Positions 6,384-44,994 are shown, counted from the first letter of the stretch. The stretch: DNA of 64,000 nt from an uncultured Chloroflexia bacterium (GCA_963714425.1 CAVQOI010000003.1:8062-72061), one strand, 5' to 3'. Made by a program: numbers and translations. Notes: generated from the sequence alone by a model not told the origin.

Positions 6384-6504
6384 GTCTGGCGGAAACTGGG
6401 CGATGTATTCGTCGATCGTGGTTGGGGTGCCTTTGTTCTCTATAATGTAAATCTCCTGAAGTAGCCTTGTCTAGAACAATTGTACTACTCTTTCCAGGTT
6501 TCTA

Positions 6505-6633
6505 CTCACCCATCCCCCCCTGCTTCCCTCCGGTCGCAGGCCCTTCCCTCGAAGGGGGGAAAGAAACCGAAAATTGGGCGTACGCCCAATTTTCGGAATT
6601 ACTCCCCTCCCCGGCTGGTGGGGGGTGGGGGTG
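6505..6633. repeat. composite GC-rich intergenic repeat, inverted copy of 1156-1285
   Basis: ctcacccatccccccctgcttccctccggtcgcag + cccttccctcgaagggggg hairpin + perfect 30-nt palindrome ccgaaaattgggcgtacgcccaattttcgg (6567-6596) + cccctcccc..ggggtgggg. Confidence 0.8.
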
Positions 6634-6682: not shown

Positions 6683-6710
6683 TTGACCTTTCCGATTTTA
6701 GCGCGATAAT
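6683..6710 (+). promoter_or_regulatory. sigma70-like promoter TTGACC-16-GATAAT upstream of the GntR gene
   Basis: TTGACC at 6683-6688, GATAAT at 6705-6710, 16-nt spacer. A second perfect TATAAT at 6728-6733 lies only 12 nt before the GTG start. Confidence 0.5.
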
Positions 6711-6716
6711 AGCTAT

Positions 6717-6726
6717 TGTTATAACA
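6717..6726. promoter_or_regulatory. candidate GntR-type operator, perfect palindrome TGTTATAACA
   Basis: 10-bp perfect palindrome of GT-N-AC type between the -10 box and the GntR start codon. Position fits autoregulation. Confidence 0.45.
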
Positions 6727-6745
6727 TTATAATCTTTCGATCACC

Positions 6746-7513
6746 GTGATGCCCACGATGAATATCCCCACACAACCCTTCAGCGTGGATAAGCACAGCC
6801 CTGTGCCTTACTACTACCAAATCGAAGAATGGCTGCGCGGCCAGATCTTGAGTGGCGCCTTGCAGCCCGGTGACCAGCTGCCCAGCGAGATGGACCTCAG
6901 CAAGCAGCTGGGTGTCAGCCGCATCGTCGTGCGCCAGGCGCTCAAAGATCTAACCCACGAAGGCCTGATCGACCGCCATCGCGCTCTGGGCACATTCGTG
7001 GCGCGTCCACGGAGAGTGGTGCCTTTCTCACGCCAGAGCTTGCGTGGCCTTACCGAGGACGTGGCCGCCGAAGGGCTTACCGTGCGCTCGCAAGTCCTTG
7101 CTCAGGAGCGGCTCCCCGCAGCGGGCGAGGTGATGCATGAGTTGCTCCTCCCGCCGGGGACTCAGGTGCTGCTCATCCGCCGTTTGCGCTCCGTGCAGGG
7201 AGTCCCCATTGTGATAGAGAGCTCCTACCACCCTTACGAACGCTTCTCAGCGCTGCTGGAAATGGATTTGAGCGACCGCTCTGTATATGAGATCCTCAAC
7301 AAGGAATACGATGCCCGTCCGGTTTACGCTCGCGACCGCTTTGTCGCCGAGGTTGCCGACCAGGAGATCGCCAGCCTGCTGGAGATCGAACCTGGTGATC
7401 CGGTGATGCGCTACAAGCGCACCGCCCGAGATAAATCTGGGAATGTGATGGAGTTCACCATCTCAATCTACCGTGCCGACCAGTACCAGTTTGTCGTCGA
7501 GTACGAAAGCTAA
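6746..7513 (+). CDS. GntR family transcriptional regulator, HutC/FarR subfamily (wHTH + UTRA)
   Basis: PGDQLPSEMDLSKQLGVSRIVVRQALKDLTHEGLIDR is a GntR wHTH. The C-terminal ~150 aa are UTRA-like. Confidence 0.85.
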   Translation: MMPTMNIPTQPFSVDKHSPVPYYYQIEEWLRGQILSGALQPGDQLPSEMDLSKQLGVSRIVVRQALKDLTHEGLIDRHRALGTFVARPRRVVPFSRQSLRGLTEDVAAEGLTVRSQVLAQERLPAAGEVMHELLLPPGTQVLLIRRLRSVQGVPIVIESSYHPYERFSALLEMDLSDRSVYEILNKEYDARPVYARDRFVAEVADQEIASLLEIEPGDPVMRYKRTARDKSGNVMEFTISIYRADQYQFVVEYES

Positions 7514-7535
7514 ACCAAATTAGGAGGTCACCCAG

Positions 7536-8792
7536 ATGTCAACCACCGCAAAAGAGATCAAGGTCTACGGTTATCGTTGGGTGGTGTTGCTGGCGTTCAT
7601 GTTCGTCAGCCTCACCATGCAGATCTTCTGGATCTGCTACGCGCCCATCACGGGGGTCGCCGCACAACATTATGGCGTCTCAGATCTGGAGATCGGCCTG
7701 CTGGCAATGATCTTCATGTTCGTGTACCTCCCGCTGGCAATCCCCGCTTCGTGGGCGATTGACACCTGGGGGTTTAAGAAGGCGGTCAGCGTGGGAGCGG
7801 TTTTGATGGGGGTCTTTGGCTTGCTGCGCGGCATATTCACCCAGGATTACACTGCCGCCCTGATCTTCACCATAGGCATCGCCGCCGCCCAGCCGCTGTT
7901 CCTCAACGCCGGCACCAAGCTGGCTGCCAACTGGTTCCCAATCCAGGAGCGCGCCACTGTCGTCGGAATCGGCGCGGTAGCCCCCTTGCTGGGCATCGTC
8001 ATTGGTCAGATGCTCACCCCTTTTCTGGTGCAGGGGTCCAGCATCGCATCAGCGATGATGATCTATGGTGTCATCGGCGCGGTCTCGGCGGTCGTCTTCT
8101 TGATTTTCGCCAAAGACCAACCGCCGACGCCTGCGGGTTTTGAAGAGCGAGTCGTCATGCTTGAGGGTCTCAAGCATATCCTCAAGATGCGCGACTTCTA
8201 CTTGCTGGCCCTGATCCTTTTTGTGGTGAACGCCATATTTAATGGTGTTTCCACCTGGGTCGAGCCTATCGTGCGCCCAAAGGGTATGGACATCGCCCAG
8301 GCTGGAATTATCGGCGGGCTGTTGATGATCGGCGGCATCGTTGGCGTGTTTGTGCTCCCGCCATTATCTGACCGCATGAGCAAGCGCAAGCCGGTCTTCC
8401 TGGTTGGGATATTGGCGACCATTCCCTTCCTGCTCTTGATGGCGTTCATCGGCAACTTCGCCCTCCTGGCAGTTGTCACCTTCGTCTTAGGCCTGTTTAT
8501 GATGGGCATACTGCCAGTCGCCATGCAGTATGGCACTGAGATCTGCTACCCTGCCCCAGAGGGCACATCGGCGGGCTTGTTTACCCTGGCGGGTCAGCTC
8601 TCGGTGGTCGCAATCACCGCCATGGGCTGGTCGAATGAAGCCTACGGCTCGTTCACGCCATCGATCATCTTCCTGTCATTGGCAATGCTGATCAGCGGAT
8701 TTCTGCTCGGGATGATGAAAGAATCAAAGATGATGCAGGCTGCCCAGCCCTCGAGCGAGGTGCAGGAAGCGCCGCAACCAGACAAGGCTTGA
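7536..8792 (+). CDS. MFS transporter
   Basis: 418 aa with about 12 TM segments. RBS aggagg lies 8 nt upstream. Confidence 0.85.
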   Translation: MSTTAKEIKVYGYRWVVLLAFMFVSLTMQIFWICYAPITGVAAQHYGVSDLEIGLLAMIFMFVYLPLAIPASWAIDTWGFKKAVSVGAVLMGVFGLLRGIFTQDYTAALIFTIGIAAAQPLFLNAGTKLAANWFPIQERATVVGIGAVAPLLGIVIGQMLTPFLVQGSSIASAMMIYGVIGAVSAVVFLIFAKDQPPTPAGFEERVVMLEGLKHILKMRDFYLLALILFVVNAIFNGVSTWVEPIVRPKGMDIAQAGIIGGLLMIGGIVGVFVLPPLSDRMSKRKPVFLVGILATIPFLLLMAFIGNFALLAVVTFVLGLFMMGILPVAMQYGTEICYPAPEGTSAGLFTLAGQLSVVAITAMGWSNEAYGSFTPSIIFLSLAMLISGFLLGMMKESKMMQAAQPSSEVQEAPQPDKA

Positions 8793-8817
8793 GTGCGTAT
8801 GCCCATTTTCCGGGAGA

Positions 8818-8913
8818 TCCCTCCTCCCCCATTCTAGGGGAGAAGAAGCCTGCCGCCGCGAAGCGCGTACGAACGCAGCGAAGTAGGGCAGGCAGGCCGG
8901 GAGTGGGGGTGGT
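8818..8913. repeat. GC-rich hairpin repeat family member (inside the operon, between the MFS and PLP-enzyme genes)
   Basis: ccctcctccccattctaggggag...aagcctgcc...gggcaggcagg...gggagtgggggtgg. Shares the CCCC/GGGG hairpin + AGCCTGCC..GGCAGG + GGGGTGGG architecture. Confidence 0.65.
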
Positions 8914-8944
8914 AGATACAAGTAGAGAATAATAAGGAGTCACT

Positions 8945-10342
8945 ATGGATATCGAGCAACTTGTAAGCGAGCTCACACAGTCAATCAAGCCATACCGGGA
9001 GAGTTTGACCAGCTACGATCGCCTGCCGGAGGCCGGGCGCTCACGAGACGAGATCCTTCAGGAGATGCAGGCGCTTTACGCCCGCGAAGAGCCCAGGTGG
9101 CGGGAGGGGCTTGTCTCTGGTGCCGTTTACCATGGCAGCCAGGACCACATCGATTTCCAGAATCAGGTATACGCCATAAACTCTCAGACAAACCCGCTGC
9201 ACTTCGACGTCTGGCCGAGCGGGGTGAAATTCGAAGCCGAGGTGGTTTCGATGACCGCCCACATGCTCGGAGCAGATAAGGAGGGGGACGAGATTGTCGG
9301 CACAGTCACGTCCGGCGGCACCGAGAGCATCCTTCTGGCAATGAAGACATACCGCGACTGGGCACGTGACACGAAGGGTATCCCTAATCCGGAGATGGTG
9401 GTGCCCACTACCGCTCATGCCGCCTTTGATAAAGCTTCCCAGTATTTCGACATCAAGATGAACCGCATTCCGGTTGGCTCTGACTTGCGAGCCGACGTAG
9501 AGGCCACACGCGCTGCCATCAATGCGAATACAGCAGTGATCGTCGGCTCTGCGCCGCCTTTCCCGCACGGCATCCTCGACCCGATCGAAGAGCTATCCGA
9601 GCTTGCCCGACAGCACGGGGTTGGCTTCCACACCGACGCCTGCCTGGGCGGCTTCATCCTGCCCTGGGCGGAGAAGCTGGGCTATCCAGTCCCGCTGTTC
9701 GACTTCCGTTTGCCTGGGGTCACGTCGATGTCAGCAGACACACACAAATATGGCTATGCTGCCAAGGGTACCTCGGTTGTGCTCTACCGCGGTCGCGAGC
9801 TGCGTCACTACCAGTTCTACGCCAATACCGAATGGCCCGGCGGGTTGTACTTCTCCCCCACCCTGGCGGGCAGCCGGCCTGGCGCACTGAGCGCAGCCTG
9901 TTGGGCTGCCATGGTCTCTATGGGCGAGCAGGGCTACCTCGACGCCGCTCGTGGCATCCTTGAGACAGCTGCCGAGGTCAAGCGCGGCCTGGGCGAGATC
10001 CCCGAGCTGCGCTTGCTCGGTGACCCGCTGTTCGTCATCGCTTTTGCCTCCGATACGCTCGACGTCTACGCCATCTCGGATGCCATGACACGCAAAGGCT
10101 GGAGCCTGAACGGCTTGCAGAACCCGCCTGCCATCCACATCGCCCTCACCATCCGCCACGCCCAACCCGGCTTCGCCGAGCGCTTCATTGCCGATTTAAA
10201 GGAAGCTGTCGCTTACGTCAAGGATCACCCTGAGATGGAAGGCTCCCTCGGTCCGGTGTATGGCCTGGCCAGCAACGTATATACCAAAGGAGCAGTCAAG
10301 GATTTCCTCAAAGGGCTGCTCGATCTGGTCTTCGAGGTTTAA
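8945..10342 (+). CDS. PLP-dependent group II decarboxylase-fold enzyme, sphingosine-1-phosphate-lyase-like
   Basis: 465 aa. [15 protein letters not shown] (PLP lysine motif) and [11 protein letters not shown]. The overall pattern resembles bacterial SPL homologs (from memory). Confidence 0.75.
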
Positions 10343-10343
10343 C

Positions 10344-11855
10344 ATGTCCAAACAATATCTTCTTGCCCACGACCTGGGCACCAGTGGTGTCAAAGCTGCC
10401 CTGACCGACCTAACCGGCAGCGTGATTGCCGCATCAGAGAGCCGTTACCCGGTCTACTACAGCCCGGACGGCGGCGCCGAGCAGGATGTAGAAGAGTGGT
10501 GGGCGGCAATTGTCAAGACCACACATGACATGCTCGCGCAGGCTGGCATACATCCATCACAGATCGCTGGCATGAGCATGGACGCCCAGATGGTTGGGAC
10601 TCTCCCCGTCGACAAGGACGGCAAGCCCCTGCGCCGTGTGATGATCTGGCTGGACGGGCGCGCTCAGCACGAAGCCGAAACCCTGGTTGAGATGACCGGC
10701 CTCCCCTTCATCACTGGCAAGGCTCCATCCGCAAAGGTCTTGTGGATCAAAAATAACGAGCCGCACATCTATGGTAAAACCTACAAATTCCTGGACTGCA
10801 AAGATTACCTGCAGTTTCGCATGACAGGCGAGTACGGTACCGATTACACCCTGGCCGTCGCCACTACCTACTTCAATCCCTTTACCATGGGCTGGTGGGA
10901 CGAGGTGCTGGCTGCCATGGGTGTGCCGGTCGAGATGCTCCCACCTGTCATGCCATCCACGCAGGTGGTTGGCAAGCTGTTGCCACAGGCTGCCCAGGAG
11001 CTCGGGCTGGTCCCCGGCATCCCGGTGATCAGTGGAGGTGGGGACGTACCCTGCGCGGTGATCGGCTCTGGGGCTATCTCTCCTGGAAAGGCGCATCTAT
11101 ACTTGGGCACCTCCGCCTGGATTTTCGCTGCTGTGAGCGATTTCCTTCTCGAAGCTCAGGGCGTCTCCCCCGGCGTGGGCTGCGACCCGACTACATTTTT
11201 GCTCGGCGGCGAGATGGACAACGCGGGTGGCTGCCTGAAGTGGTTCCATGAGAACTTGATGTCGCCCAGCGATAATGAGGAGGCCTCTCGCCTCGGTCTC
11301 AGCCCATTCGCCTACCTGGACCAAAAGGCTGACGCAGTGCCACCCGGCGCTGAAGGGCTGCTCTTCCTACCCTGGGTGTGGGGTGAACGCTCTCCGCTCG
11401 ATGACGACCTGCTGCGTGGCGGTTTCGCCATGCTAGGGCTCAACCACACCAAATGGCACATGGCACGCGCCATTTTGGAAGGTTGTGGGCATCACCTGCG
11501 TTGGATCCTGGACTCGATGCGCGACGCCGGCGTCCCCCTCGACGTGCTCAACGTCATTGGAGGCGGAGCCTTCAGCAAGACTTGGCTGCAAATGCTCTCC
11601 GACGTAATCGGCATCCGCCTGCTGCAGGTCGAAGGTCCCCTGGACGCCTGCGCTCGCGGCACAGCGATGACGGCTGCCGTTGGCCTGGGCTTCTACCCGG
11701 ACTTCGCCGCAGTTGAGAAGGTCATCCGCCTGACTGGCGCCGAATTTAGCCCCGACCCGGCTTGCCGCCAGCTCTACGACCGCGCTTACGCCGACTTCCG
11801 CTCGCTGTACCCGCCTTTTAGCGCTATCGGGCACGGCAAAGTCGCCGCACTATAG
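10344..11855 (+). CDS. FGGY-family carbohydrate kinase (xylulokinase/glycerol-kinase-like)
   Basis: The internal ATG at 10344 gives MSKQYLLAHDLGTSGVKAAL, a typical FGGY N-terminus, and starts 1 nt after the stop of the previous gene. C-terminal GGGAFSKTWLQMLSDV motif. Confidence 0.85.
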   Translation: MSKQYLLAHDLGTSGVKAALTDLTGSVIAASESRYPVYYSPDGGAEQDVEEWWAAIVKTTHDMLAQAGIHPSQIAGMSMDAQMVGTLPVDKDGKPLRRVMIWLDGRAQHEAETLVEMTGLPFITGKAPSAKVLWIKNNEPHIYGKTYKFLDCKDYLQFRMTGEYGTDYTLAVATTYFNPFTMGWWDEVLAAMGVPVEMLPPVMPSTQVVGKLLPQAAQELGLVPGIPVISGGGDVPCAVIGSGAISPGKAHLYLGTSAWIFAAVSDFLLEAQGVSPGVGCDPTTFLLGGEMDNAGGCLKWFHENLMSPSDNEEASRLGLSPFAYLDQKADAVPPGAEGLLFLPWVWGERSPLDDDLLRGGFAMLGLNHTKWHMARAILEGCGHHLRWILDSMRDAGVPLDVLNVIGGGAFSKTWLQMLSDVIGIRLLQVEGPLDACARGTAMTAAVGLGFYPDFAAVEKVIRLTGAEFSPDPACRQLYDRAYADFRSLYPPFSAIGHGKVAAL

Positions 11856-11914
11856 AATCAAACACCCTGCCCCGCCCGCATGCCTGACAGCTGGCAGGTG
11901 AGAGTAGACCTAAT

Positions 11915-11955
11915 AACAGTTTGCAGATTATTTCCTGCAAACTGTTGTTTTTTTA
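11915..11955 (+). terminator. rho-independent terminator
   Basis: aacagtttgcag / ctgcaaactgtt is a perfect 12-bp stem with an 8-nt loop, followed by a run of T. Confidence 0.8.
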
Positions 11956-12284
11956 TTCTTCTTCAGCCGGTGCTTGCGTCATTCGTCGATGCGCCGGGGT
12001 TGCCATCAGCCAGAAGCCCTACGCCCAGTTGAGTGACCGTATTGAGATGAAATCTTTGTCATCTTGATATCTCGGTAGCAATTATCATCCACTTTTCTTG
12101 TGGAAAGATTCATCATTCAAAACCTATCGATGCCGGGGTCAGCGCGGATATAATAACGGTATCCACCCACATTCCCCCTTGCCTCCCACCATTTTGGAGG
12201 AGGGCAGAGAGTGGGGCGCGGCGTAGCGATCAGTCTTAGCGAGAAAATGATACACATTGCGGATTTCAATTAGGAGAAAAAATC

Positions 12285-13943
12285 ATGACTATCGTTCTGG
12301 ATGGCTCCGGCCTGACGGTTGACAAGCTAACACGCATCGCACGGCATGGGGAGGGCGTGGAGCTGCACCGCGATGCTCTGGATCGAATCAAAGACTGCCG
12401 GAGCATGCTGGAAGAGAAACTCAACGCCCGCGAGATCATGTACGGCACCAACACTGGCATTGGGGAGTTCTCCGAGGTAGTGCTCAACGATGAGCAGGTG
12501 AAAGACTTCCAACGCTACTTGATCTACAACCATGCAGCTGGCATCGGCGAGCCTGTGCCTATCGAACACGCTCGAGCAGCCCTGGCCTCGCGGGTGAACG
12601 TTCACGCCCACGGGAACTCGGGCTGCCGACCGGAGATCACCCTGACCATGGTGGAGATGCTCAACCGGGGGGTGACGCCAGTGGTGTGTCAAAAGGGATC
12701 GGTGGGGGCGTCTGGCGACCTGGCGCCCATGGCGCAGATGGCGCTGCTGCTGATGGGCGAAGGCGAGGCATTTTACCAGGGCGAGCGCCTGCCTGGAAAG
12801 ACCGCCCTGGAGCGGGCGGGTATCCCCATCCCTGGCTTGCAGGCACGCGATGGCTTGGCAGCCATCAACGGCTCTAACCTGCTGACCGCCATGAGCGCCT
12901 TACACGTGTATGACATGAACCGCTGGTTGAAGCAAGCTGAAATCGCCTGTGCCATGAGTCTGGAGGCGTTGAAGGCTAACCTCAAGCCCTACGATGTGCG
13001 CCTGCACAAAGTGCGCGGCTTCACCGGCGCCATCCGCAGCGCCATTGCAATCATGAAGTGCATCAATGGGAGCGACCTGGTATCGGGTAAGATGAAGACC
13101 AAGGTGCAAGACGCCTACTCGATGCGCTCGTCCCCGCAAGTCATCGGGGCAGCTCACGACGCCATTGCATACGCTCGCAGCCAGGTGGAGATTGAGTTGA
13201 ACGGCGTGGGCGATAACCCCATCTTCCTGCCCGAGTATAGGCTCACACTCACGGGGGCAAATTTCCAGGGCACACCTGTATCCCTGCCGATGGATATGGC
13301 AGGAGCAGCCATTACCATGGTGTGCGTCCTTTCCGAGCGCCGCCTGAACCGCCTGACCAACCCTGCGCTCAGCGTGGGCTTACCGGCTTTCTTGACCAAG
13401 GGAGCGGGCATGTTCTCCGGGCTGATGCTCAGCCAGTACACCGCTGATACGCTTATCGTAGAGCAGCGTATGCTGTCCGCGCCTGCCAGCGTCCAATCTA
13501 TCCCAGCTGCCGCCGACCAGGAGGACTTCGTCTCCATGGGCATGAACACAGCCTTGAAGAACCAGCAGATCCTGGAGAACGCTTATGGTGTGCTGGGCAT
13601 TGAGTTCATGGGCGCCGCGCAAGCGCTGGATTTCCGCGATTTCACCCCCGGGCGCGGCGTGCAGGTTGCCAGGCAGGTGATCCGCAAGCACGTCGAGCAC
13701 CTGGACGAGGACCGCCCGCTGTATCCCGATCACAATACCATGGCGGCGCTGGTGAAATCCTGCGAGATTTTGGAGGCAGTCGAGACGGAGGTGGGCAGCC
13801 TGGAGGTAGTAAGCTTCCAGATTTGCCTCCATCCAATAATGGACAGTTATTTGGACGAATATTATCTACGATATCCGGCGACGGGAAGCGTCACACGACT
13901 GTTGGGACGTAAGCAAAATTGCCCAAACGAGAATTTCAGGTAG
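12285..13943 (+). CDS. MIO-dependent ammonia-lyase/aminomutase family enzyme (HAL/PAL/TAL family)
   Basis: GSVGASGDLAPMAQMAL contains the Ala-Ser-Gly MIO triad. Length and pattern are HAL-like. The last ~45 aa (VVSFQICLHPIMDSY...) look like non-homologous read-through. Confidence 0.8.
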   Translation: MTIVLDGSGLTVDKLTRIARHGEGVELHRDALDRIKDCRSMLEEKLNAREIMYGTNTGIGEFSEVVLNDEQVKDFQRYLIYNHAAGIGEPVPIEHARAALASRVNVHAHGNSGCRPEITLTMVEMLNRGVTPVVCQKGSVGASGDLAPMAQMALLLMGEGEAFYQGERLPGKTALERAGIPIPGLQARDGLAAINGSNLLTAMSALHVYDMNRWLKQAEIACAMSLEALKANLKPYDVRLHKVRGFTGAIRSAIAIMKCINGSDLVSGKMKTKVQDAYSMRSSPQVIGAAHDAIAYARSQVEIELNGVGDNPIFLPEYRLTLTGANFQGTPVSLPMDMAGAAITMVCVLSERRLNRLTNPALSVGLPAFLTKGAGMFSGLMLSQYTADTLIVEQRMLSAPASVQSIPAAADQEDFVSMGMNTALKNQQILENAYGVLGIEFMGAAQALDFRDFTPGRGVQVARQVIRKHVEHLDEDRPLYPDHNTMAALVKSCEILEAVETEVGSLEVVSFQICLHPIMDSYLDEYYLRYPATGSVTRLLGRKQNCPNENFR

Positions 13944-33982: not shown

Positions 33983-34011
33983 CGCGAAGGCACAGAAGAG
34001 CGAATACCGCC
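33894..34011 (+). repeat. direct repeat A (~118 nt) flanking the RAYT insertion
   Basis: By hand alignment with 35682-35796, the first ~75 nt differ only by a 2-nt indel and one substitution. The remainder is more diverged. Confidence 0.8.
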
Positions 34012-34264
34012 AAATGTTATTTAGAAGCCATTCGCGGCATTCGCGTTGAAAGAAGTTTTTTTCTCAGGAAATTCAGAATCGGGGTTAGTTAGCTCTCACC
34101 AATTTCCCGGCAGAGATGACAATTGGCACTTGAACCGAGGGGTTGGTTTTGCTATGATGTATGGAGCATTCCATGCTGGTTGGGTAGAGCACCGCCTCCA
34201 AACCACGAAGCCCCGGTAGGTTGGGTTGAGCTCCGCTTTACCCAACGATTGAGCGAAGCACATA

Positions 34265-34414
34265 TATTCCAATCCTGTGCATCACGGATTGGTACAGCGG
34301 GTGGTTGAATGGCCATGGTCGAGTTTTCACAAGTACATCAAAAAGGGGTATTATGAGAATGGATGGGGAGAGGCGCTTGGGGAGGATGTGAGCAGGATGG
34401 GCTGCGGGGAGTGA
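34265..34414 (+). pseudogene. 3' fragment of a REP-associated tyrosine transposase (RAYT) gene
   Basis: Encodes NPVHHGLVQRVVEWPWSSFHKYIKKGYYENGWGEALGEDVSRMGCGE*. Highly similar at the nucleotide level to 35405-35549. No N-terminal part is present. Confidence 0.75.
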
Positions 34415-34419
34415 AGGTT

Positions 34420-34440
34420 GGTGTGGTCTGCGTCCACACC
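34420..34440. repeat. REP-like hairpin downstream of the RAYT fragment
   Basis: ggtgtgg tctgcgt ccacacc. Confidence 0.65.
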
Positions 34441-34616
34441 TTACGACTTATGATGAAGTGGTATTGAATATACCTAGTGAATTCAAATGGACCCTGATCC
34501 CAGCATTGTTATCAGTTTTTGAAAAACCATAACAAGCTTGATCAGTAAACGAATTTTTAGATGCGTTCGAATAGGAACATTAATGGATAGTAAGATTCGA
34601 ATGATTTGAATATTGT

Positions 34617-34946
34617 TTGCTATTTGACAATGGTGAAGGAGTTAGATGTCGAAATAATATGATGCGATCAATTGGCATATTAGCATGTTTCATAATTCTG
34701 CCATTTCTTTTTTACCTGCTTTTACGACATCCAAGAATCACTCAACGCGGTTTCGCCTTATGGGGGGCAGCAATTTTTGGATTGTTTTTTCTGGCTTTAG
34801 TACTTATTGCGGCTCCCCGCCCACCGCGTGACACAATTATCATCGGAGTGACCCTTTGTATTTCTAACTTCCTAATTGGGATTCCTATCACATATTTTAT
34901 GTATTCAATGATTCGCTCTCTCCGAGAGAAAATTCGTAAGTCGTAG
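34617..34946 (+). CDS. small membrane protein in an AT-rich segment (likely start MMRSIG at 34659)
   Basis: Three hydrophobic segments. Composition is clearly AT-richer than the surroundings. Followed by a GGTGCGG-tttta-CCGCACC hairpin at 34948-34968. Confidence 0.45.
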   Translation: MLFDNGEGVRCRNNMMRSIGILACFIILPFLFYLLLRHPRITQRGFALWGAAIFGLFFLALVLIAAPRPPRDTIIIGVTLCISNFLIGIPITYFMYSMIRSLREKIRKS

Positions 34947-34996
34947 GGTGCGGTTTTACCGCACCATCCTTTCATTATCCAATATAATTTCAAGAA

Positions 34997-35549
34997 ATGC
35001 CTGAATACCGTCGATTATTTATCTGAGGGCGGCACATACTTTTTCACCGTGGTTACCTACCACCGCCTGCCTATATTGACTTCTTCTCAAGCCAGAGCCC
35101 TGTTGCGCGCTGCCTGGCAGAATGTGCGCCAACGATTCCCTTGCAGCATCGATGCCGTTTGCCTGCTGCCTGATCACATCCATGCCATTTGGACACTGCC
35201 CGAGGAAGATGCGGATTATTCCAAACGCTGGGGAGAGATAAAAAGGCTGTTTACCAAAGGCTATTTAGATCAAATTGGACCTGGGGGAACTCGAAACCAA
35301 TCGCGCAGGCGGCGGGGCGAAGCTGCCATCTGGCAGCCACGATTTTGGGAGCACGCCATCCGGGGTGGGGCGGATCTGAACCGGCATCGAGATTACGTCC
35401 ATTACAACCCTGTGAAGCACGGATTGGTACGGAGGGTGGTTGAATGGCCATGGTCGAGTTTTCACAAGTACGTCAAGATGGGGTATTATGAGAATGGATG
35501 GGGAGAAGCGCTTGGGGAGGATGTGAGCAGGATGGGCTGTGGGGAGTGA
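34997..35549 (+). pseudogene. REP-associated tyrosine transposase (RAYT, IS200/IS605-like Y1), N-terminus frameshifted at about 35024
   Basis: MPEYRRLFI (ATG 34997) stops at TGA 35024. The +1 frame continues EGGTYFFTVVTYHRLPIL...LPDHIHAIWTLPE (HUH)...RFWEH..YVHYNPVKHGLV..WPWSSFH (catalytic Tyr region). Confidence 0.8.
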
Positions 35550-35554
35550 AGGTT

Positions 35555-35575
35555 GGTGTGGTCTGCGACCACACC
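35555..35575. repeat. REP-like hairpin downstream of RAYT
   Basis: ggtgtggtc tgc gaccacacc, a perfect 9-bp stem. Confidence 0.7.
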
Positions 35576-35681
35576 CTACGACTTAAGCTAAATGAGAGGT
35601 GGACCTGTGGCAAGAAATAAGCGCCTTTACATCTTGTTGCTGGGTTTGGTGTTAGTGGTCTTGTGTGGATTCTCCGTTTTT

Positions 35682-35796
35682 TCCTGATGTACCTGGGCTT
35701 CTTGCGCGCCACCGCCGTCCGCTCGTCGGGCAGGAGGTTGCGGCGGTCGCCAGGTAAAGATCTTGTAACACGAAGGCGCAGAACGCGAAAACCGCC
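35682..35796 (+). repeat. direct repeat B (partner of 33894-34011)
   Basis: See repeat A. The 2-nt deletion relative to A would frameshift the duplicated gene end. Confidence 0.8.
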
Positions 35797-35913
35797 TGCG
35801 CGTCGCGTGGACATGTGTCTCCTTTAAGCTTCCTGGCGAGAAGCCGTTAGCGGAAGAGTTCGGGGGTCTGTATGCAAAAAATCTGCCCCCTGCGCTGAGA
35901 TCGGATAAGCCCC

Positions 35914-35934
35914 CTACGCTATACGCTACACGCT
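35914..35934. repeat. tandem heptamer NNACGCT x3
   Basis: ctacgct atacgct acacgct. Same unit as 2836-2856. Confidence 0.7.
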
Positions 35935-35939
35935 ATATC

Positions 35940-36251
35940 TTAGATCACCGGCACGCCTTCTAACTTGTCCTGGTTCGCCTGAACCTCATCGGTGACCACG
36001 ATCTCTTTCTCCCCCGCTTTTGTCAGGCGCACCGAGGCGCCCACTTCGAAGGTGCCCGCCAGGTAGGGCACACGTGACCCCGCCACATATCGCCTGCCGG
36101 ACTTGATGCGCTCGACGAGCGTCTTGCGGTCGTAGATCAGGTAATCCGTGAACACGGCCCCGCGCCGCTCGAACAGGCGCACCCAATCGATCTCTCCGTT
36201 TGACTTGTAGCGCACGGCCTCTACCACCCCGTCGTATTTCACCTTGGCCAT
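35940..36251 (-). CDS. hypothetical 103-aa protein
   Basis: ORF 35940..36308 with the start taken at MAKVKYDGVVEAV (36251). No family recognised. Confidence 0.5.
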   Translation of the reverse strand: MAKVKYDGVVEAVRYKSNGEIDWVRLFERRGAVFTDYLIYDRKTLVERIKSGRRYVAGSRVPYLAGTFEVGASVRLTKAGEKEIVVTDEVQANQDKLEGVPVI

Positions 36252-36325
36252 CGGCTGCTCTCCCTGGCGCCAGATTGTGCTGTGCGGGCGGCATAGCCGC
36301 CCGCACAATCATTCTTCTCTTCCTG

Positions 36326-36399
36326 TCGGGGCGGGCGGACTTGAACCGCCGGCCCCCGCGTCCCAAACGCGGTGCGCTACCGGACTGCGCTACGCCCCG
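36326..36399 (-). tRNA. tRNA-Pro (anticodon UGG)
   Basis: The reverse complement folds by hand as a cloverleaf: acceptor CGGGGCG/CGCCCCG, D stem GCGC/GCGC, anticodon stem CCGCG/CGCGG with loop TTTGGGA, T stem GGCGG/CCGCC with TTCAAGT. 74 nt, no encoded CCA. Confidence 0.9.
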
Positions 36400-36466
36400 A
36401 GTGATGCCTGCCTGTGATAGGCGAAGAGAGTATAATGCGAACCAGCCGGAAACGTCAAGGAGATTT

Positions 36467-44927: not shown

Positions 44928-44994
44928 CCCCCCTTCCCCTGGGAAGGGGCCGAAAGCCTGCGACCAAAGGGAAGCAGGGAGAGGGATGAGGTAG
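44928..44994. repeat. GC-rich hairpin repeat family member
   Basis: ccccccttcccctgggaaggggccgaaagcctgcgaccaaagggaagcagggagagggatgaggtag. Collinear with 1214-1285. Confidence 0.75.

Follow-up and report, generated by a model that had tools for sequence, protein, structure and literature searches.

The question raised by this locus is what an enzyme of the sphingosine-1-phosphate (S1P) lyase type does in a bacterium that encodes it next to a kinase of the sugar-kinase family. The DNA comes from an uncultured Chloroflexia bacterium (GCA_963714425.1 CAVQOI010000003.1:8062-72061), and the window referred to below is the whole stretch of 64,000 nucleotides that was analysed. Open reading frame (ORF) calling and Pfam assignment across the 64-kb window give an operon of four ORFs, all on the + strand, that encode a GntR-type regulator, a major facilitator superfamily (MFS) transporter, a pyridoxal phosphate (PLP)-dependent lyase of the S1P lyase type (SPL) and an FGGY-family kinase. 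Judged from sequence, this operon is probably a repressor-controlled catabolic or detoxification unit for a free 2-amino-1,3-diol, a base of the sphingoid type, in which the kinase would act first and the lyase second.

The lyase and its kinase partner

The PLP enzyme scored 658 bits against the solved structure of the Symbiobacterium thermophilum lyase StSPL (3MAD), 417 bits against human SPL, 398 against yeast Dpl1 and 397 against the Burkholderia S1PL, compared with only 88 bits for the tyrosine/aspartate decarboxylase MfnA and 87 bits for glutamate decarboxylase (GAD). Its identity to StSPL is about 68% over 458 residues. In StSPL, PLP is bound by K311, H310, D274, H201, G168, T169 and S353, and phosphate/phosphoethanolamine by A103, Y105, N126, H129 and K317 (PMC10243590). 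All twelve residues are identical in the aligned window SPL, among them Y105, H129 and K317, which are ligands specific to SPLs; across 76 homologues, seven of the twelve positions are invariant and the other five nearly so. An earlier note on this DNA had singled out the SPL-type lysine motif HKYGYAAKG, and K268 within it is the PLP lysine. The note had also considered that the protein might cluster with plain decarboxylases, which is not what we found: the scores and the active-site residues rule out a decarboxylase, and the enzyme is by clade, as far as sequence can place it, a true S1P lyase (EC 4.1.2.27, fold-type I PLP). StSPL cleaves S1P both in vitro and in blood (PMC3148216). Because the window SPL is 68% identical to an enzyme shown to do so and keeps every ligand residue, we strongly infer that it would catalyse the retro-aldol cleavage of a D-erythro 2-amino-1,3-diol 1-phosphate.

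StSPL (STH1274; PDB 3MAD and 3MAU) has the same PLP, phosphate and phosphoethanolamine ligands and no transmembrane helix. The two proteins differ at the N-terminus: the first residue of the window SPL lies some 43 residues downstream of the annotated StSPL start, near StSPL residue 44. Nothing in the window SPL corresponds to the 'Nt-FLEX' segment of StSPL (residues 1-57), which has not been visible in any crystal. Symbiobacterium homologues of 458-461 aa that are 82-87% identical (P0122-P0130) likewise start later than the annotated StSPL, and the start codon of STH1274 may have been annotated too far upstream.

When a single genome was scanned for each species, 80 SPL loci were recovered, with 64-81% identity in the SPL itself and nearly all from metagenome-assembled genomes (MAGs) of Anaerolineales/Chloroflexota. 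The conservation of neighbours in these loci was assessed by tblastn and by all-against-all clustering of the ORFs. The FGGY kinase is the sole widely conserved neighbour, present in 62 of the 80 loci; the GntR regulator was found in 12 and the MFS transporter in 8, and the rest are sporadic. Of the 53 loci with at least 2 kb available on both flanks, 51 have an FGGY gene that adjoins the SPL gene, invariably in the same orientation. Both gene orders and three FGGY subgroups occur among the paired loci, which belong to Chloroflexota and Symbiobacteriaceae, and the median gap in the SPL>FGGY order is 13 nt. In Symbiobacteriaceae/Bacillota loci whose SPL is 70-86% identical to StSPL, the FGGY gene follows the SPL gene by 5-15 nt; the context of StSPL was judged from these relatives rather than from its own locus. 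The pair was likewise found on two further contigs. As a control, none of 33 metagenome loci with other FGGY kinases (29-36% identical to the window's) carries an SPL within 5 kb, and a metagenome scan with the window kinase itself returned only four close relatives, on short contigs. The pairing of SPL with FGGY kinase exceeds chance, and a failure of the pair to recur in other genomes, which the earlier note had envisaged, was not seen.

Two other arrangements were observed in this survey. In L005, L009 and L010 (also L075 and L079) a GntR-SPL pair adjoins a gene for a tungsten-type aldehyde:ferredoxin oxidoreductase (AOR) with no adjacent kinase, except that L075 has both. This suggests that some anaerobes gain energy by oxidising the aldehyde product, and that the kinase can be encoded elsewhere or is dispensable. 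L015 (1023-9533) carries a same-strand cluster of two SPL paralogues, 45% identical to each other's clade, together with two MFS_2 (GPH-type) transporters and an FGGY kinase.

The earlier note had placed the partner kinase in the FGGY rather than the DAGK/LCB family. This assignment holds, as only FGGY domains were matched by Pfam (FGGY_N, 198 bits; FGGY_C, 105 bits). With no DAGK_cat match, the kinase falls outside the sphingosine/long-chain-base kinase family (DAGK_cat, LCB5), and if it is a sphingoid-base kinase, it would be one by function and not by family. Its closest solved relative is E. coli XylB (PDB 2ITM; 193 bits, 32% identity), with which it has the catalytic Asp in common, but it scores 316 against the XylB model TIGR01312, below the cut-off of 380, and 208 against PRK15027, for which the cut-off is 912. 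The same pattern extends to the partner kinases as a whole. They form three subgroups that are 31-41% identical to one another: group A (the window and six genome loci; 60-77% identical to the window kinase), group C (five loci; about 39%) and group B (51 kinases, of which 48 are from Chloroflexota loci and three from Symbiobacteriaceae; 30-37% identical to the window kinase and 45-96% to the group references). The partner kinases of the StSPL relatives belong to group B, whereas that of the window belongs to group A. For every one of them the xylulokinase profile is the best match, yet every score is under 380 (A, 316; C, 335-344; B, 257-266).

The catalytic Asp (GlpK D245 / XylB D233) is kept in all 62 partner kinases. 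Among the specificity positions of the FGGY family defined by Zhang et al. (PMC3245297), those of GlpK R83, E84, D245 and F270 were compared; Y135, specificity position 3, was not reliably alignable and was left unused, and the alignment columns were located with a GlpK sequence checked at its five landmark residues only. At these four positions E. coli XylB has M,H,D,V, whereas group A has M,V,D,W, group C has M,V/L,D,F/W and group B has W/G,S/A,D,W. Thus the specificity His of XylB is replaced by Val, Leu, Ser or Ala in all partner kinases, and Trp or Phe stands in the place of its Val in nearly all. The curated cut-offs and the specificity positions rule out a true xylulokinase; on these sequence criteria the partner kinases are FGGY members that are not xylulokinases. 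Their aromatic residues would suit either an ammonium group or a hydrocarbon chain.

The transporter, the repressor and the layout of the operon

The best solved relatives of the MFS protein are FLVCR2 (120 bits) and FLVCR1 (109 bits), both over the full length, and the next, DgoT, reached only 33 bits. Over about 380 residues the window transporter is 25-31% identical to human FLVCR1 and FLVCR2, which carry choline and ethanolamine as uniporters and whose ligand residues are W125, Q214, F348, Y349 and Q471 (PMC11168923). The window transporter keeps four of these five, W125, Q214, F348 and Q471, as do eight other SPL-linked MFS proteins, while the tenth (L087) has Asn for Q471. The aromatic-cage Tyr349 of the human proteins (SLC49), in contrast, is Asn in all ten. 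The window protein also differs from them in being bacterial and operon-encoded, with a substrate that is predicted only. Transporters of this type are common to loci with group A and group B kinases, and on two metagenome contigs (L088 and L089) the MFS gene directly precedes a group A kinase gene with no SPL between them. From this distribution the transporter and the kinase are evidently linked.

The regulator comprises a GntR domain (PF00392, 69 bits) and a UTRA domain (PF07702, 132 bits), and the solved structures most closely related to it are those of NagR/YvoA (140 bits) and DasR (110 bits). The HutC label given to it by the earlier note stands as the name of a subfamily, but not as a statement of kinship, since NagR and DasR are the closest characterised regulators and the HutC equivalog TIGR02018 was scored at 127 against a cut-off of 220. 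In NagR, the phosphate of GlcN-6-P/GlcNAc-6-P is bound by T90, R133, R135, S165 and Y167, and the sugar by E145, R211, E222 and Y228 (PMC4333415). All nine residues are identical in the aligned window regulator, and the retention of all the phosphate ligands agrees with a pocket of the phospho-(amino)sugar type, as had been suggested.

The palindrome TTGTTATAACAT (6716-6727) overlaps the transcription start region of the operon. In 976 kb of related loci there are seven copies of the 14-mer AATGTTATAACATT with up to 2 mismatches, five of which precede the first gene of a GntR/SPL operon by 30-100 nt (L002, L008, L009, L017 and L050). Given the conserved phosphate pocket and the operator, a phosphorylated small molecule is the likely inducer, most simply the product of the kinase. 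NagR (YvoA) of B. subtilis and DasR of Streptomyces, which sense GlcN-6-P and GlcNAc-6-P, likewise have a palindromic, promoter-overlapping operator, and the phosphate ligands and four sugar ligands of NagR are shared with the window regulator. They differ from it in operator sequence (AATGTTATAACATT in the operon studied here), in the pocket changes S88G, F89L and I209Y, in that the genes regulated here are not amino-sugar genes, and in that the effector here is predicted only.

The features of the operon are collected in Table 1. The ORFs, promoter, palindrome and hairpin bear out the earlier note's picture of four same-strand genes between a promoter/operator and a strong terminator, and support its reading of them as one regulated transcription unit. 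A second TATAAT is found at 6728-6733. The terminator folds at -20.3 kcal/mol (z -8.2), and none of 200 shuffled sequences was as stable. The gaps between genes had been described as very short, which is correct for GntR-MFS (22 nt, with a GGAGG Shine-Dalgarno sequence) and for SPL-FGGY, but not for MFS-SPL (152 nt). The kinase ATG at 10344 does lie 1 nt past the TAA stop of the lyase gene (10340-10342), as had been noted, and the kinase gene is predicted to be translationally coupled to the lyase gene. The MFS-SPL spacer contains nested inverted repeats and folds at -58 kcal/mol (z -2.2). A site scan of it revealed neither a terminator-like nor a promoter-like site, and an Rfam scan of the leader and the spacer matched no riboswitch or other known RNA. 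In L002, the closest relative, the spacer is missing and the MFS-SPL gap is only about 4 nt. The spacer could be an element for mRNA processing or stability, or an inserted repeat.

Table 1. Features of the operon, in window coordinates
Feature	Position	Strand	Basis and remarks
Sigma-70-type promoter, TTGACC-16 nt-GATAAT	6683-6710	+	10/12 matches
Operator palindrome ATTGTTATAACATT (14-mer), core TGTTATAACA	6715-6728	.	Predicted GntR/HutC repressor binding site
GntR/HutC-subfamily repressor, winged helix-turn-helix + UTRA	6746-7513	+	Pfam; start GTG 6746 or ATG 6749
MFS transporter, FLVCR/SLC49 type	7536-8792	+	MFS_1; predicted amino-alcohol carrier
G+C-rich structured intergenic spacer, 152 nt	8793-8944	+	Folding; ends in AAGGAG Shine-Dalgarno of lyase gene
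PLP-dependent S1P-type lyase (SPL), 465 aa	8945-10342	+	PLP lysine K268 in HKYGYAAKG
FGGY-family kinase, 503 aa	10344-11855	+	FGGY_N + FGGY_C; predicted amino-diol C1 kinase
Intrinsic terminator, 15-bp stem + 8-nt loop + T-run	11912-11957 (stem 11912-11949)	+	Folding

A candidate pathway, its substrate and rival explanations

A kinase-then-lyase sequence is the most economical reading of these data. The FLVCR-type transporter would import an amino alcohol, its conserved Trp making a cation-pi contact with the amine and its two Gln binding the hydroxyls. The FGGY kinase, whose conserved adjacency and translational coupling to the lyase suggest a common task, would then use ATP to phosphorylate the primary C1 hydroxyl in place of a sphingosine kinase of the DAGK/LCB type. 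The SPL very probably forms an external aldimine with the C2 amine and breaks the C2-C3 bond by retro-aldol cleavage, which would yield phosphoethanolamine and an aldehyde. In this genome the aldehyde would be handled by unlinked enzymes; in other genomes, genes for AOR, alcohol dehydrogenase or aldehyde dehydrogenase are found in the vicinity. The NagR-like repressor, in view of its phosphate pocket and the operator, would sit on the promoter palindrome and be released by the phosphorylated intermediate.

The lyase needs a substrate whose head group has a 2-amino, a 3-hydroxy and a 1-phosphate substituent. What follows the head group is less constrained. SPLs are reported to be stereospecific for the head group but to show no specificity as to the length, unsaturation or branching of the chain (PMC5733215). 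Because they are reportedly indifferent to tail length, the S1P activity of StSPL does not fix the physiological tail, and it is therefore the kinase and the transporter that set the physiological substrate. Several observations favour a lipid tail. S1P is the only demonstrated substrate of a close homologue. A plant-type fatty-acid amide hydrolase (FAAH) is encoded directly downstream of the SPL in five loci (L027, L029, L038, L059 and L078); this homologue (for example L078:9424-11106) scores 436 bits to Arabidopsis FAAH (6DHV) over its full length, compared with 210 for GatA. A Zn-dependent alcohol/aldehyde reductase is encoded upstream of the kinase in four of these five loci (not in L078). 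Aldehyde handling in other genomes is represented by AOR in five loci, a Zn-dependent alcohol dehydrogenase in four and an aldehyde dehydrogenase in L085. That most loci lack a transporter agrees with a substrate able to cross membranes. The antibacterial action of free sphingoid bases would provide a reason for detoxifying them. In favour of a small polar substrate are a kinase of a sugar-kinase family, a carrier of the ethanolamine/choline type and a sensor of the amino-sugar-phosphate type. The substrate may be a long- or medium-chain sphingoid base or, with lower probability, a short polar amino-diol or amino-polyol. The earlier note had inferred from the FGGY partner that the substrate is 'therefore' a non-lipid amino sugar alcohol. 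That step is not established, given 68% identity to the S1P-cleaving StSPL, the reported indifference of SPLs to the tail and a genomic context that points both ways. A short-chain dehydrogenase/reductase (SDR) that adjoins the module in L007 and L051 has TSC10 as its top PDB match (111 bits). We do not count it as a 3-ketosphinganine reductase: it scores 115 against a cut-off of 400 for the NCBIfam model KdsR, other SDR models score higher, and the evidence is weak.

Several points weigh against the proposed pathway. The context clues on the substrate tail, lipid or polar, conflict. The three kinase subgroups are about as distant from each other as from XylB and might serve different substrates, and we know of no FGGY kinase that acts on an amine-bearing or lipid substrate. 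No kinase is adjacent in L005 and L018, the two exceptions among the 53 fully flanked loci, or in several GntR-SPL(-AOR) loci, and most loci have neither the transporter nor the regulator. In addition, the paired loci come from related MAGs, so that the counts are not independent events, and faulty binning may lie behind some of the taxon labels (Acidobacteriota, Desulfobacterales, Bacteroidales).

An improbable alternative is that the operon is an ethanolamine module. The FLVCR-type carrier would import ethanolamine, the FGGY enzyme would be an ethanolamine (amino-alcohol) kinase, and the 'SPL' would use phosphoethanolamine, either as a phospho-lyase, with acetaldehyde, ammonia and phosphate as products, or by joining it to an aldehyde in the aldol direction. 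This would make sense of a transporter that keeps four of the five ligand residues of the choline/ethanolamine carriers FLVCR1 and FLVCR2, of Trp at the kinase specificity positions, of the FAAH, an N-acylethanolamine hydrolase, beside the SPL in five loci, and of neighbouring AOR, alcohol dehydrogenase and aldehyde dehydrogenase genes, which would suit acetaldehyde. The active site of StSPL does bind phosphoethanolamine, but the crystals captured it as a stable aldimine (PMC10243590), which makes rapid elimination less likely, and the enzyme is efficient at the retro-aldol cleavage of S1P (PMC3148216). Moreover, the smallest known FGGY substrate is glycerol, and the Y349N change enlarges the transporter pocket instead of preserving the ethanolamine/choline cage.

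The order of the two enzymes could also be reversed, with the lyase cleaving a pre-phosphorylated amino-polyol and a xylulokinase-like enzyme phosphorylating the resulting sugar-like aldehyde or ketose for central metabolism. We consider this very improbable. That all partner kinases are nearest to the xylulokinase profile, and that some SPL loci have no kinase, would agree with it, but it requires a second, unseen kinase or a phosphorylating uptake system, whereas the transporter is a uniporter-type FLVCR homologue and not a phosphotransferase system. The loss of the XylB specificity residues (His to Val, Leu, Ser or Ala) also speaks against it, and the MFS-kinase adjacency in L088 and L089 is what import followed by phosphorylation would lead one to expect. 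A chance neighbourhood of a xylulokinase and a group II PLP decarboxylase with no common pathway could draw on public labels, as Pfam names the PLP enzyme only Pyridoxal_deC and relatives are annotated as 'aminotransferase class V-fold' or 'decarboxylase-like'. The probability of this explanation is close to nil. It is contradicted by the bit scores for SPLs (658, 417 and 398) as against decarboxylases (88), by the SPL-specific ligands and by kinases that fall below the XylB cut-off; the conservation counts, with pairing in 51 of 53 loci across two phyla, exclude it.

Known systems, significance and neighbouring features

The pathway proposed here, phosphorylation of an amino-diol followed by its cleavage, has the same two-step logic, the same lyase family and the same products, phosphoethanolamine and an aldehyde, as eukaryotic long-chain-base degradation (Lcb4/SphK followed by Dpl1/SGPL1). 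The eukaryotic kinase has the DAGK_cat fold, whereas that of the window operon has the unrelated FGGY/ASKHA sugar-kinase fold, and the eukaryotic proteins are bound to the membrane of the endoplasmic reticulum, in contrast to soluble proteins encoded in an operon with a transporter and a repressor. The earlier note's statement that the function is not predictable from known pathways was overstated, for the chemistry is that of the eukaryotic route with a non-orthologous kinase. FucK-FucA and RhaB-RhaD follow a common logic as well: an FGGY kinase acts on a terminal hydroxyl, after which a lyase yields a small phosphate ester and an aldehyde. Their lyases are metal-dependent class II aldolases, however, unlike the PLP-dependent SPL, and the substrate here must carry an amine. 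In Pseudomonas aeruginosa, the sphR/sphA/sphBCD system is induced by free sphingoid bases and metabolises them (PMC11398299). What sets the window operon apart is the kinase fold, the PLP type of the lyase, and the packaging of the two with an FLVCR-type carrier and a NagR-type repressor, while the kinase-then-lyase logic is known. To our knowledge, no kinase or SPL step has been described for the Pseudomonas genes, and the likeness is one of description only. Full-text searching, whose coverage excludes most subscription journals, turned up no paper on SPL-FGGY pairing or on FGGY kinases in sphingoid metabolism, nor any bacterial sphingoid-base kinase.

Our tentative proposal is that the FGGY-fold kinases are the missing bacterial sphingoid-base (2-amino-1,3-diol) kinases, which form with StSPL-type lyases a two-gene module that is widespread in Chloroflexota and Symbiobacteriaceae. 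The kinases may have been recruited to it from several FGGY subgroups. If the proposal is true, the module would allow bacteria to destroy free sphingoid bases or related amino-diols, or to use them as nutrients, the kinase step in bacteria would be filled, and crystallised StSPL would be supplied with a natural function. StSPL has served as a surrogate in drug design and is a candidate therapeutic, and its natural role in the bacterium was called unknown by its authors (PMC3148216); the partner kinase supplies a pathway context and a substrate hypothesis. If the kinase acts on amino-diols, the FGGY family would reach from sugars and polyols to amine-bearing, possibly lipid, substrates. If the proposal is true, turnover of sphingoid bases or unrecognised amino-polyols would also be part of the ecology of the Anaerolineae-type Chloroflexota that abound in sediments, digesters and sludge. 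The operon further adds bacterial models of an FLVCR-type carrier and of a NagR-like sensor with a defined operator.

The gene that follows the operon (12285-13943, +) encodes an MIO-type aromatic amino-acid ammonia-lyase of 552 aa with the ASG motif and a C-terminal tail of about 50 aa. It passes the NCBIfam model for the histidine ammonia-lyase subfamily (530; cut-off 524) and is below that for the hutH equivalog (497; cut-off 539). The name 'HutC' might suggest a link between this histidine ammonia-lyase-like gene and the operon. We discarded such a link: a separate promoter-like site precedes the gene (12056-12085), the operator is not repeated there, and the related loci have no counterpart of the gene.

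Upstream of the operon, a C-rich/G-rich, hairpin-prone intergenic region contains a small dispersed repeat (6503-6539), copies of which are present at 1248-1287 (-; 40 nt at 92% identity) and 44956-44979 (-; 24 nt). A match to the Rfam 'Pospiviroid RY motif' at 6544-6613 (-) reached 30 bits, below the gathering score of 40, and coincides with a 13-bp terminator-like hairpin that follows the divergent DUF1801 gene; it is almost certainly a chance match. Farther along the window, the segment at 34000-36400 has a G+C content of 0.49, compared with about 0.58 for the window, and lies beside the only tRNA gene (tRNA-Pro, 36325-36399, -); it may be an integrated element.

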